From Hormiphora californensis (Eukaryota > Animalia > Ctenophora): a DNA stretch of 64,000 nt. This document shows, piece by piece, positions 10,038 through 55,500 of the stretch. The notes beneath the pieces were generated by a model. It searched no databases, was not told the DNA's origin, and saw only the letters and a list, made by a program, of their open reading frames with translations. Made by a program: the position numbers and the translations under genes. The stretch spans positions 4,836,001-4,900,000 of the forward strand of contig CM035357.1 in NCBI GenBank assembly GCA_020137815.1, written 5' to 3'. Each line of letters opens with the position of its first letter. The first letter of the stretch is position 1.

Positions 10038-13000
10038 ATGCGCCTTCTATGTCTCATCCTTCTCTTTCCTGTGCTTGTCCGGGCGGGTGAAGAATGGCCC
10101 CATTTCAAGGTGGCCGCAATCGTTGAGAACATGGGAGATGGAAGTGATGATTCCTGGCCGAGACTTGCGAATGAGTCACTTATTGTTGCTAAGAATCTGA
10201 TCAAGGAGAGATTGGGGATCAGTCTGGATTTGAGATTTGTCTTCTCAAAGTGTAACACAAAGATTGGTCTTATTGAAACTACCAAGTGTCTCATTGATCA
10301 AAATTTGGTTGAAAACGATTCGGAGACCGAGTAAGTGGCGAATGAGTGTTTGTTTCAAAACCATAGAAGTTATTTGTTGGTCTAACTCAAAGTTTCAACG
10401 CCAAGAGTGCTAATTCAACCATAACTTTTACTAACTGCATTGTTTTCAGTGAGCGTGTAGACGTGTTTGTTGGCCCAGGATGCTCAGAAGTTTGCAAAAA
10501 TACCGCGTACATTGCCTCCAAAGAGGGATTCAACGTCCCAATGGTAAACAATATCTAAATGATTTGTTAAATATGTTTAGTTCTGATATCATATCTGATG
10601 TCTTATCTCCCCAAATTCCCTTCCCATATCTTCTATCCCCCCAAACTCCCTCTCCATATATCCTATCCCCCCAAACTCCCTCTCCATATATCTTATCCCC
10701 CCAAACTCCCTCCCCATATCTCGTATCTCCCCAAACTCCCTCCCCATATCTCGTATCTCCCAAACTTCCTCCCCAGATCTCGTATCCCCAAACTCCCTCT
10801 CCAGATCTCCTATCTCCCCAAACTCCCTCCCCATATCCCCCCAAACTCCCTCCCCAGATCTCCTATCCCCCCCAAACTCCCTCCCCATATCTCGTATCTC
10901 CCAAACTCCCTCTCCAGATCTCCTATCCCCCCAAACTCCCTCCCCAGATCTCTTACCTACCCCCAAACTCCCTCTCCAGACCTCTTACCTACCCCCAAAA
11001 TCCCTCTCCAGACCTGTTATCTCCCCCAAACTCCCTCCCCAGATCTCCTATCCACCCAAACTCCCTCTCCAGATCTCCTATCCCCCAAACTCCCTCCCCA
11101 GATATCCTATCCCCCAAACTCCCTCCCCAGATCTCCTATCCCCCCAAACTCCCTCTCCAGATCTCCTATCCCCCCAAACTCCCTCTCCATATCTCCTATC
11201 CCCCCAAACTCCCTCCCCATATCTCGTATCTCCCCAAACTCCATCTCCAGATCTCCTACGCGTGCACACTGGACAGTTTGAGTGACCGGAACGATTACAG
11301 TACCTTTGCCCGGACGGTTCCCAGTGTGGGGTCCAATGCTGTTCCCATGATTACCATTATCAAAGAAATGGAATGGGAACGGGTGGGAATAATTTACAGA
11401 AACATTGGACTTTACGAGGTAAGAGCAATGAGCAAATTGTCGTCTTGTCGAGTTCAGTCGTTCGATATCATTTTAAATTTCACCCTGGAGAAGAATGGAT
11501 AGAGGGAATTGATATTAATAGTATAGATACAGATAAACTTTTTGCTCTACATATTTAAGTTTCAACATCCCCTATTTCAGGAGGCTGCTGCCAGTTTGAA
11601 AAAGGAGCTGGAGAAAAGTCTTGGATCTGATCCAACAATGGAGTTTGGGTTTCAGGTCAGTTGTACTGTGTATTGTTTCTAGGTATTCGTCTTGACGCGG
11701 CTCCGATAAGAAACATGGCTTGAAGCCAAGCAAGGTGTGCTGCGTATCAGATACACTATTCCTAGGATAAACAGCTACACGATCAGACTGCAGAGAGAGA
11801 GAGAGCCTACTTGAAATCCTTGGTTACGAAATAACCCCTCTCCGGGCGACCTTCGCGCGCGCTGGCAAGGGGTAACTTCGTAACCAATTGAAATCCTTCC
11901 AGGTGAAATGTTACAAAGTTTGGTATTTTGATGATGACGATAAAGACGAGAAGATTGCCACTGCTAAGGACATTAGAGATGAGTGTAAAGACGAAGTTAG
12001 AGGTTGGTTATATAATATATAGCTACCCCTCTTCCGAGAGCCATTATGGATATGTAGAGACTGATATTATACTTGACCAAGTAGTGATATCAACTCGTAG
12101 TGTCATTCTTTTCAAGCAACTAACATATCTTCATTTCAGTTTTCATAATCCTGGCGTATGATTCGAATGTTATTGATTTCCTGAAGCTAGCTTACGAAGA
12201 TACCTCGTTTCCTTATTCTGAATCTGCTTTTATTGCGCTGGAAGTTACTCAGACCACCGTGACCGAAGGTATTATAGCTTTTAAACGGTTGTATCAATTA
12301 ATTTAGATAACATTTCGAGGAGAATTATGAGCCATTAATTATATATCTTGATCCCAATCTTTCGATCTCTGCACATATATCTGATATTACTATTACTGTA
12401 CTCATATTCATAATAATCCGTCGAAATCGTGTATAAAATTTGACAAAACATAAAATTTATAGGGGCAATGTAATTCCTTCACTAAATGGTAGTAATAGGT
12501 CCACCCTACGTAGGCCTACCACCAAACGAAAGTTTACCAACCAACTCCATGGGGGGAGGTCCGATAATTGGCCTTAATTGACACCTGTATTTTCAGTATG
12601 GGTCCAAAACCATAAGTACCCTTAGAATAGGAGTAGAGAAAAAACCAAGGGCATTAAAGTGATCAGCGTCCTCGCATTAGTGGGGGTAGGTGCTGGAATC
12701 AAGTCTCTATCTCATCAGGTTAATTAGATATTTGGATAATTAGATATGTGCATAACCGTATTTTGGCTATATGGCTATAGCCACTTAGGAATGGTTTAGA
12801 GACTTTTCACTGGTGCCATTTTGTAGGCAATGGTCAAGTTATGGGGGGTCGACGTCGGACTTTTAAGCTCTATTTTTAACCGTTTAGCCGTTATTCGGCT
12901 TTAAAAGTGCTCAAAATGAGCAAAAAATGGTAAAAAGCCCGATTTTTAGCACCTTTAAAGCCGAATAACGGCTAAACGGTTGGAGATAGAGCTTAAAAGT

Positions 13001-52500: not shown

Positions 52501-55500
52501 AGGGGGCCAAAGCGTGTATTATATCCTGGCTTCCAGGATGTCAACAGATATTGTGTAAACCATTACACGTGGTGTTGGTATCATAGCATGGTATGATGTC
52601 AGCTATTGTAATACACGTGTGAAACCACACAATGTAGTTACATGTGTGTTTGTGACCTGTGTCAGTACTACTGTGGGTTTTACACGTGATAGCTCAGATA
52701 TACCAGAATCGGAAAGTTTCTGACATACCGCCCTACCCCCCCCCCCCCCCGACATACCAAAAAAAGGTTGGGTAGATATGTTTTCAAACCACAACCCTCC
52801 CACCTTTCTCAGTGCACTGTTGTTGATGATGACTTCGTGAACCTTGAGTTCTCCCCAACTGCTGGTAATGGAACCTACGCTCTAAACCTGTTGATTGGAG
52901 ACATGGTCTTCCCTGGATGCCCCATCCAGCTTGAAGTTAAGGGACTTTAGAAAGAGAGATGGAGAGAGAGAGAGAGAGAGAGAGAGAGAGAGAGAGAGAG
53001 AGAGAGAGAGAGAGAGAGAGAGAGAGAGAGAGAGAGAGAGAGAGAGAGAGAGAGAGAGAGAGAGAGAGAGAGAGAGAAAGATCTAAAAAGATCTAAAAAG
53101 ATCTAGAGAGATCTAGAGAGATATCTAGAGAGATATCCTTAGGACCTGGCCTTCAATTCAAGTGCGTGTAAAGACTCTTAAAGTTTTGTTTAAAGATGTT
53201 TATAGGATTTTTACTTTTGTCAAAAGTTTTCTTCTCAATACTGTTTGAACTAAAAAACTGGTCATTATTTGTGTATATTTCATCACCGATCCCTCACAGA
53301 GCGCCCTAAATTATAAAATGCAGTGTGAGCTACACTAGCCCTACCTTACCCCCCCCCCCCCTCAAACCCCCTCAACATCGTGTTGGGCCCTATACCTTGT
53401 ATTATCTGGCAGAAGATTGCATGTTCCTCCTCCTCCTTCCCACTTACAACTGTCCCCTGTCTGGAGAGAAGAACTACCCCATCGTTATCCGGGTCGGCTG
53501 AGGGACCTGAAAATGGGAATTAGTTGAGGGACCTAAAATGGGAACAAGATTTAGGTGGGTAATAACAAATAAGGCATACGGGTAGATAAACTTCTGACGC
53601 ATGCCCATGGGAGCCACTATCATTAAATCAAATCATCAACCAACCTTGATCAGCAGGATCAATCACCCAGGCACTATCATGATCATAGAAGACCAGCATT
53701 TTAGTAAGGTACTCGATCATGTAGGGTGTGGAGGGTCGTGTTACTACCCCACCCGCCTTCATACAGTTCAGTTTGACAAAGTTCCGGGCCACTTTCGGTT
53801 CCACCAAGTTTATCTCGCCATCTACAAAAGGTTAAAGATTAAAGGTATGTTGTATACTGTACCCAGTACCCACTAATCAAATTACCAACCCCCATGAATA
53901 ACTCGCTACCCACTTACAGTTACCCAATCCCCATTCCCCGACCAGAACCACACTCACCACTCCCCCGACCGGAACCACACTCACCACTCCCCCGACCGGA
54001 ACCACACTTACCACTCCCCGACCGGAACCACACTTACCACTCCCCGACCGGAACCACACTCACCACTCCCCCGACCAGAACCACACTCACCACTCCCCCG
54101 ACCAGAACCACACTCACCACTCCCCCTGACCGGAACCACACTCACCACTCCCCCGAACAGAACCACACTCACCACTCCCCCGAACAGAACCACACTCACC
54201 ACTCCCCCGACCAGAACCACACTCACCACTCCCCCGACCGGAACCAAACTCACCACTCCCCCAACCGGAACCAAACTCACCACTCCCCCGACCGGAACCA
54301 AACTCACCACTCCCCCGACCAGAACCACACTCACCACTCCCCCAACCAGAACCACACTCACCACTCCCCCGACCGGAACCACACTCACCACTCCCCCGAC
54401 CAGAACCACACTCACCACTCCCCCGAACAGAACCACACTCACCACTCTCCCGACCGGAACCACACTCACCACTCCCCCGACCAGAACCACACTCACCACT
54501 CCCCCGACCAGACCCACACTCACCACTCCCCCAACCAGAACCACACTAACCACTCCCCCGACCAGAACCAAACTCACCACTCCCCCGACCAGAACCACAC
54601 TCACCACTCCCCCGACCAGAACCAAACTCACTACTCCCCCGACCGGAACCACACTCCCCCGACCGGAACCACACTCACCACTCCCCCGACCAGACCCACA
54701 CTCACCAAGCAAGGGACATCCACTCTCATCAGACCCATCGAGACAATCCCCCTCCATCCTATCACACCTTTTATGTATCGGCACACAATCACAACTCCCG
54801 CACCTCCACTCGTCGGGTGGGCAACTATTGGCACATGCCGGTTCCTCCTCAGCTCCACAGGTCCCAGTCTCGTGGCTCCTCAAGGGCAGGGAAGTGTTGG
54901 CATCTTGCCAACTAACCAAGATGGATTCAGGGGAGGGGATTAGACAACCCTGGGTGTATTGTAACATCTGTGGAGGAGAGTGAAATTTGAATTAGGAATG
55001 TTACAAAACCGGGACGGCGAGAGGAACTTCTATGTGATAAGGTTTGGTAAAATTATATGGTTGCGTGATGGTCTGGAAAAGCTACAATAGAAAAAGTAAA
55101 AGTGAATGTAGAAAGGGTGGAGTAGGTTTTTTAAGAGATATGACTATATAAATTCTTTGGACCTGATCGGAAGAGAAGGTTCCACTCCAGACCACCAGAT
55201 CCCTAACAAGACCACGGAGGGAGTAGGAGGGATGGGAGTCGTGTGGCACGCCACCAACCACCACCTCTCCGGGGTATGATAAACCTGATAAATAGAGAAA
55301 CATCATGGCTAGAAAAGGAGATGGAGAGAAAAGAGAGGAGACAAAGACATGAGAGAGATACGCTCCAAAAAAGGTAATATAAATTCAGATATATGACCGT
55401 TATGATCCGCCAAGCTGTACCTTGCAGGGAGGATATCTCCGGTCCACTGTCCTCCAGTATGACGTCACCATTCAACCAGATCCTCAACCTTCCCTTTTCA

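Follow-up and report, generated by a model that had tools for sequence, protein, structure and literature searches.

Minisatellites whose repeat unit includes a splice junction are known from amphioxus and human genes. In amphioxus they are called mirages and occur at Adh3, the globin genes BflGb6 and BflGb9, troponin C, and PGBD5, where length polymorphism and somatic instability are described and normal splicing is shown, the arrays leaving splicing undisturbed (PMC3087553, PMC3902484). In human F7, intron 7 carries a 37-bp variable number tandem repeat (VNTR) in which the most upstream of 5-9 identical donors is used alone and the pseudo-sites are functional but unused; the same report names further donor-spanning minisatellites in 6-16, CBS intron 13, lamin B2, and PDGF intron 4 (PMC1557585). 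We analyzed a stretch of 64,000 nucleotides (nt) from the ctenophore Hormiphora californensis (assembly GCA_020137815.1, contig CM035357.1, positions 4,836,001 to 4,900,000, forward strand), hereafter the window, and found ten arrays of this type in its introns, five at acceptors and five at donors. The pattern itself is not new, having been published as amphioxus mirages and as several human VNTRs. Tandem repeats make up 13% of the Hormiphora genome (PMC8527503), so the family is repeat-rich. Our literature searches found no ctenophore mirage case, and the available portions of PMC10078293 and PMC8527503 make no mention of junction-spanning arrays.

Ten junction-spanning arrays in four genes

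The gene models were annotated by hand from the sequence and comprise five multi-exon genes and one two-exon Delta/DSL gene; with the duplicate DSL copy left out, the set contains 73 introns (146 junctions). All 73 introns are bounded by GT and AG, the spliced frames contain no internal stop, and about 12 kb of coding sequence across the five genes runs without a frameshift. Pfam matched 8 of the 11 exons tested. The median intron length is 207 nt, and about 160 nt (160-162) after the repeats are collapsed. Four of the genes host the arrays, the third being called gene 4 here.

10038..25130, + strand: receptor guanylate cyclase, 21 exons, 1148 aa, intact
34555..49403, - strand: adhesion G-protein-coupled receptor (GPCR; GPS, 7tm_2), 33 exons annotated, frame intact, 5' end not found
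50820..52951, + strand: gene 4, 6 exons, 262 aa annotated
53283..57978, - strand: LDLa-containing extracellular protein, 11 exons annotated, frame intact, 5' end not found

The guanylate cyclase is 97.5% identical to P0001 of Pleurobrachia bachei over 844 columns. A search with one of its exons retained 5 proteins among 581 candidates, all from ctenophores (P0001, three Bolinopsis microptera isoforms, and one Mnemiopsis leidyi protein), and a metagenome scan with a guanylate cyclase exon gave 486 pattern matches, none of them a relative, and thus no related locus. Pfam gave no match on the exon tested from gene 4, whose last exon presumably has a filamin-type fold. The ten arrays are as follows.

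10598..11258, + strand: acceptor array, cyclase intron 2, 30-nt unit, about 22 copies, 8 exon nt, true AG at 11249-11250
14333..14554, + strand: acceptor array, cyclase intron 8, 38-45-nt unit, true AG at 14541-14542
22666..22973, + strand: acceptor array, cyclase intron 19, 30-nt unit, 10 copies, true AG at 22967-22968
39435..39653, - strand: donor array, adhesion GPCR intron 22, 21-nt unit, true GT from 39646, 6-7 exon nt
40744..40893, - strand: donor array, adhesion GPCR intron 19, unit of about 16 nt, true GT from 40891, 2 exon nt
48315..48655, - strand: acceptor array, adhesion GPCR intron 3, 22-31-nt unit, intron end at 48326, 11 exon nt
51474..51555, + strand: donor array, gene 4 intron 2, 28-nt unit, 3 copies, true GT from 51482
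52098..52200, + strand: donor array, gene 4 intron 4, 44-nt unit, 2.3 copies, 5 exon nt
53499..53545, - strand: single 26-nt acceptor duplication, LDLa gene intron 9, intron end at 53507, 8 exon nt
53936..54707, - strand: donor array, LDLa gene intron 8, 27-nt unit, 29 copies, true GT from 54705, 2 exon nt

An earlier note on this DNA had listed these ten arrays. All of them were present near the positions it listed, each repeating the adjacent junction, and the strands and the donor or acceptor labels were correct; the three host genes it counted are in fact four, with three arrays in the cyclase, three in the GPCR, and two each in gene 4 and the LDLa gene. The arrays thus occupy 10 of the 73 introns. 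Their units are 16-45 nt long and mostly intronic, with 2-12 exon nt, and the exon share is below half of the unit in every array (sign test 0.001, Fisher combination 0.076). Tandem Repeats Finder (TRF) carried eight of the ten across the junction, by 2-18 nt; its boundary in cyclase intron 8 fell 7 nt short, and the single duplication in LDLa intron 9 lay below its threshold. Copies of a junction with a score of at least 12 were found on the intron side of 10 of the 146 junctions, a set that includes one microsatellite and one abutting array and misses two of the listed ten, and on the exon side of none (0/146), so the claim that the copies extend into the intron only was borne out.

The units are unrelated to each other, the best pairwise match over 45 pairs having an E value of 0.2 or worse, and none of the ten arrays matches elsewhere in the window, as expected of the recurring process, rather than one repeat family, that had been proposed. 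With unit recurrence at 0/10 in the 64-kb window, we rejected a transposon-derived or dispersed family as their source. The arrays account for 2,905 of the 3,977 bp (73%) of their ten host introns, leaving a remainder of 69-148 nt beyond the farthest copy in 8 of the 10; they do lengthen introns, in line with the suggested intron growth. The suggested intron gain drew no support here, as none of the ten reaches both intron ends as an intact array.

The splice dinucleotide is kept in 72 of the 90 copies detected (30/47 at acceptors and 42/43 at donors) by a probe that found only 2 of the 4 copies in cyclase intron 8. Acceptor copies have lost AG more often than donor copies have lost GT, a difference driven by two arrays and drawn from copies that are not independent. 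In cyclase intron 2, AG is kept in 12 of 21 upstream copies and lost in the two nearest the exon. Cyclase intron 8 holds four upstream copies with the acceptor and 10-12 exon nt, all with AG and all out of frame. AG is kept in 8 of 9 copies in GPCR intron 3, and GT in 7 of 7 in GPCR intron 22, where the flanking exons encode 7tm_2, and in 27 of 28 in LDLa intron 8, where the exon matches PF00057. Cyclase intron 19 lies inside the cyclase domain, the next exon matching Pfam PF00211, and contains a further, older stretch.

22469..22665, + strand: older decayed acceptor copies, cyclase intron 19, same unit as 22666..22973

These decayed copies fill the rest of the intron to about 25 nt from the donor, and copy identity declines with distance (Spearman -0.79, n=15). 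The homogeneous copies near the junction and the decayed ones beyond fit growth from the junction end. Among seven arrays tested, such a gradient was clear in this intron only and weak in a second, the tiling identities being inflated by gaps over a background of 0.5-0.7.

The exon-proximal site and its decoys

In all ten arrays the exon-proximal site maintains the reading frame. Comparison with homologous proteins was ungapped at cyclase intron 2 (P0002 and P0005; P0001 does not reach this intron), at cyclase introns 8 and 19 (P0001, P0002, and P0005), and at gene 4 intron 2 against P0011, a protein of 258 residues from a 1,123-nt contig that is likely to be a spliced transcript. The junction of gene 4 intron 4 falls in a threonine run of the homologue comparison. 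Single-exon homologue searches passed none of the candidates for the LDLa gene (0/1) or the adhesion GPCR (0/14), so for the five array junctions in these two genes frame continuity is the sole guide. Because the protein alignments contain no gap at the four junctions available for checking, the exon-proximal site as predicted from the sequence is the conserved one there, and the earlier view that splicing has to choose this site agrees with its preserving the conserved protein at cyclase introns 2, 8, and 19 and gene 4 intron 2.

We scored the decoys with a rough matrix made from the other junctions of the window. Scores as high as that of the true site, or higher, were reached by decoys in four arrays (LDLa intron 8, gene 4 intron 2, and cyclase introns 2 and 19). 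In 7 of the 10 arrays, use of the decoys that are homologous to the junction would cause a stop or a frameshift. In particular, each listed decoy introduces a stop in GPCR introns 3 and 22, both decoys of gene 4 intron 2 outscore the true site but shift the frame, and the decoy of LDLa intron 9 is weaker as well as out of frame. At gene 4 intron 4, two in-frame GTs lie 3 nt apart, and we preferred the downstream one, at 52103. In-frame, open decoys were found in cyclase intron 19 (all six decoy AGs, stop-free), in LDLa intron 8 (the first decoy, scoring above the true site), and in cyclase intron 2 (5 of the 11 listed).

Decoy dinucleotides are changed at 18 of 180 positions and their flanks at 97 of 720, showing no excess change overall, and the detected copies gave no overall signal of a targeted loss of decoy dinucleotides. 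With the dinucleotides showing no excess change and decoys scoring at least as high as the true site, position rather than strength most likely decides which site would be used. The arrays are probably harmless, and splicing in the cell is likely confined to the exon-adjoining copy.

Placement and origin of the arrays

Junction-spanning arrays are accompanied by intronic minisatellites that span no junction, among them the following.

42200..42566, - strand: minisatellite without a junction, 367 bp, intronic, ending 35-38 nt before the acceptor
23338..23799, + strand: arrays without a junction, a 12-mer in 34 copies (23338-23739) and a 14-mer in 4 copies
32542..32643, + strand: abutting array with a 37-nt unit, ending 1 nt before the acceptor, junction not copied

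Altogether, 16-17 of 25 non-transposon intronic minisatellites span no junction, which points to the same process being active elsewhere in introns. The ten arrays listed earlier are real, but the list had omitted the non-spanning ones, such as 42200-42566 and 23338-23739. We considered 42200-42566 as an eleventh case and rejected it, since the in-frame acceptor lies 35-38 nt further on. The 14-mer array (23741-23799) breaks off 3 nt from the acceptor that leads into an alternative last exon and, like the arrays at 32542-32643 and 56438-56470, stops 1-3 nt short of the junction with the dinucleotide not copied.

In our null model, each array was collapsed to one unit, repeats found by self-BLAST were masked, and the unit was dropped at random, without selection, and scored for covering a junction. 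TRF with parameters 2/7/7 and score 50 detected 40 arrays within introns; we set aside 9 that were microsatellites and 6 that lay in transposon-like blocks, leaving 25. Since the introns are short, 4-5 of these 25 would span a junction by geometry alone. By our reading, about half of the spanning cases are geometry in short introns, and the remaining, roughly twofold excess and the greater length of the spanning arrays suggest some extra bias of birth or survival at junctions, whose cause was not found. The window was selected for its striking pattern, so all P values below are optimistic, and the cut-offs for length and unit were set after the data had been seen.

We judge it fairly probable that ordinary local duplication produced the ten separate mirage arrays of the window, in introns that are short, and that they are tolerated because splicing keeps to the exon-touching copy. 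A stretch of 16-45 nt would be duplicated by slippage or microhomology repair, after which renewed slippage or unequal exchange would enlarge the array. Where an intron measures about 100-160 nt, geometry alone would often make units of such a size overlap an end, and selection would remove duplications lying within the exon or containing a large share of it, so that mostly intronic units would remain. In donor arrays the first donor would be used, an upstream-first choice as in human F7. In acceptor arrays the last acceptor would be used, and because this copy must beat the AGs upstream, pairing across the exon is suggested. In many cases, splicing at the wrong copy would introduce a stop or a frameshift.

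Several results weigh against this explanation. The 22666 and 53936 arrays contain strong in-frame decoys, the products of which would escape nonsense-mediated decay. The evidence on site use is protein conservation, and P0001 is a database protein that may be a gene model or a transcript. Furthermore, 8 of the 25 arrays span a junction versus an expectation of 3.9 when all introns are used and 4.6 when each array's own intron is used (P 0.02-0.05), or 9 of 25 versus 3.8-4.4 (P 0.006-0.011) when the intron 8 array is counted and shorter units are taken for two arrays. On the assumption that seeds with over half their length in the exon disappear, 2.2-2.7 would be expected for the 8-9 observed, an excess of about three- to fourfold (P 0.0015 or lower). 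Spanning arrays are also longer than the others (median 259 versus 55 bp, P 0.005), which geometry by itself does not account for, and they tend to have more copies (10 versus 3, P 0.06), though also longer units (28 versus 13, P 0.06).

These counts are what would be expected if exon-intron borders were true hotspots where duplications start or survive preferentially, with possible causes such as breaks linked to transcription or chromatin, a C-rich pyrimidine tract seeding slippage, or a selection-kept junction copy serving as a lasting template; we nevertheless regard such hotspots as unlikely. Of the 15 arrays of at least 70 bp, 8 span a junction versus 3.1-4.1 expected, the 10 shorter ones not doing so at all. 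Three further arrays end 1-3 nt from a junction, and in cyclase intron 19 the fresh copies adjoin the junction with the decayed ones far off, which is also what a hotspot would leave. However, all of this comes from a single window, and the clear decay gradient is confined to one of the seven arrays. With the looser TRF setting (2/5/7, score 40) the excess shrinks to 8 of 31 versus 4.3-5.0 (P 0.05-0.09), and with transposon arrays included to 8 of 45 versus 4.6 (P 0.07). A cruder edge test gave no excess (8/146 versus 7.7-9.1), a result on which we do not rely, as its control is faulty in counting the far ends of the same arrays as well as microsatellites. A two- to fourfold junction excess is thus plausible but unproven. 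The earlier proposal of seeding at exon-intron borders drew weak support (8-9 of 25 versus 4-5 by geometry), and the comparison with random placement that it had called for, made here within the window, yielded an excess of about twofold that is borderline. If hotspots were true, the spliceosome of a short-intron animal from the earliest branch would need to select the final one among as many as a dozen equal acceptors. It seems doubtful that ctenophore junctions gain arrays three- to fourfold above geometry, with more than one in ten introns arrayed and cross-exon pairing as old as the animals.

We also considered that the arrays might be used, the in-frame decoys yielding isoforms with insertions of 9 or 10 residues or mis-splicing tuning expression. 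The 30- and 27-nt units of cyclase introns 2 and 19 and LDLa intron 8 would permit such isoforms, and in human 6-16 and CBS two pseudo-sites are active alongside the true site (PMC1557585). Yet the stops and frameshifts in seven of the ten arrays, the position of a 22666 insertion inside the cyclase domain, and the lack of an insertion in P0001, P0002, and P0005 at the cyclase array junctions (P0001 stopping short of intron 2) make this use very improbable for the arrays here. That the arrays are assembly artefacts or have wrong lengths, to which a homopolymer-rich, noisy region at about 27130-27690, separating the two copies of an exon region, might point, is scarcely credible, considering that shared substitutions set the copies apart in higher-order patterns, that the five genes together have about 12 kb of coding sequence free of frameshifts, and that equal structures have been published in other animals. 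G-quadruplex seeding was rejected as a general cause, the motif being present in 2 of the 10 spanning arrays and in 2 of the 4 other arrays checked.

Other repeats in the window include long microsatellites, TC-rich on the sense strand, at 40232-40435 and 51656-51830, which end 10-22 nt before the acceptor and form an extended pyrimidine tract. Intronic inverted-repeat elements lie at 12407-13431, 16309-17270, 24156-24549, and 31783-32212; their arms of 145-366 nt are near-perfect (93-99% complementary), and the elements appear to be of the foldback type or like miniature inverted-repeat transposable elements. One 13-nt repeat array occurs at both 26868-26974 and 63200-63334, each time within a shared dispersed element.

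The guanylate cyclase has, in addition, an alternative last exon at 23803-24048 (+ strand), which matches the C-termini of P0003 and P0004 of Bolinopsis and P0005 of Mnemiopsis to the last residues. It contains an in-frame TAG at codon 19 (23857-23859), behind which the conserved frame continues, and this TAG may be a recent nonsense change, a sequencing error, or a site of read-through. A possible in-frame microexon of 24 nt with AG and GT was seen by eye in GPCR intron 25 (38461-38484, - strand), and it resembles the end of the preceding exon. Besides the host genes, the window contains one further multi-exon gene.

28558-33300, + strand: six-exon gene without a listed array, no Pfam match on the exon tested

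We take this gene to be PX/SH3-like. Its first-exon region occurs twice (25424-27126 and 27694-28901), with the homopolymer-rich stretch in between, reflecting either a local duplication or an assembly join. The Delta/DSL-domain gene is likewise present in two copies (58153-59832 and 61191-62662, + strand); the copy at 61904-63097 has the full second exon (PF01414), and the other copy ends early beside a repeat element.

Comparison with mirages, human VNTRs, and intron gain

In intron gain by tandem duplication, the Rogers model, for which potato RdRp is an example (PMC4974935), the duplication carries splice signals, as it does in our arrays. There, however, a new intron results, whereas here the array lies at one intron end and the intron also includes unique sequence. 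We rejected this type of gain as an explanation because each array touches one junction only and the duplicated segment does not supply both splice sites. The nearest approach to the pattern is cyclase intron 19, where the stretch of decayed acceptor copies reaches to within about 25 nt of a donor unrelated to them.

In the human minisatellites, too, the opening unit covers the donor and includes a few bases of exon (4 of 37 in F7), and identical pseudo-donors follow, a geometry that is the same as that of our five donor arrays. Use of the upstream site is proven in F7 and would be expected for the arrays here. While the human cases are few and donor-side, half of those in the window are acceptor-side, and the introns are short. 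Under the first-AG rule, an upstream decoy would be favored at an acceptor array. Because the last copy is instead the one that keeps the protein conserved, the acceptor arrays are informative on 3' site choice and offer a natural test of it in short introns. Such arrays also mislead gene prediction and short-read assembly.

The arrays share the structure of the amphioxus mirages. All ten consist of head-to-tail units spanning an exon-intron boundary with 2-12 exon nt, the terminal unit holds the authentic site, with homologues ungapped at 4 of the 5 junctions having a homologue, and many, though not all, copies keep AG or GT. Both 5' and 3' boundaries are involved, and the units are locus-specific. 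Relative to amphioxus, the arrays belong to a different phylum, their units are mostly intron, and they are known from the sequence alone. Our observations extend mirages to ctenophores and show them at a high local density, in 10 of 73 introns of one window.

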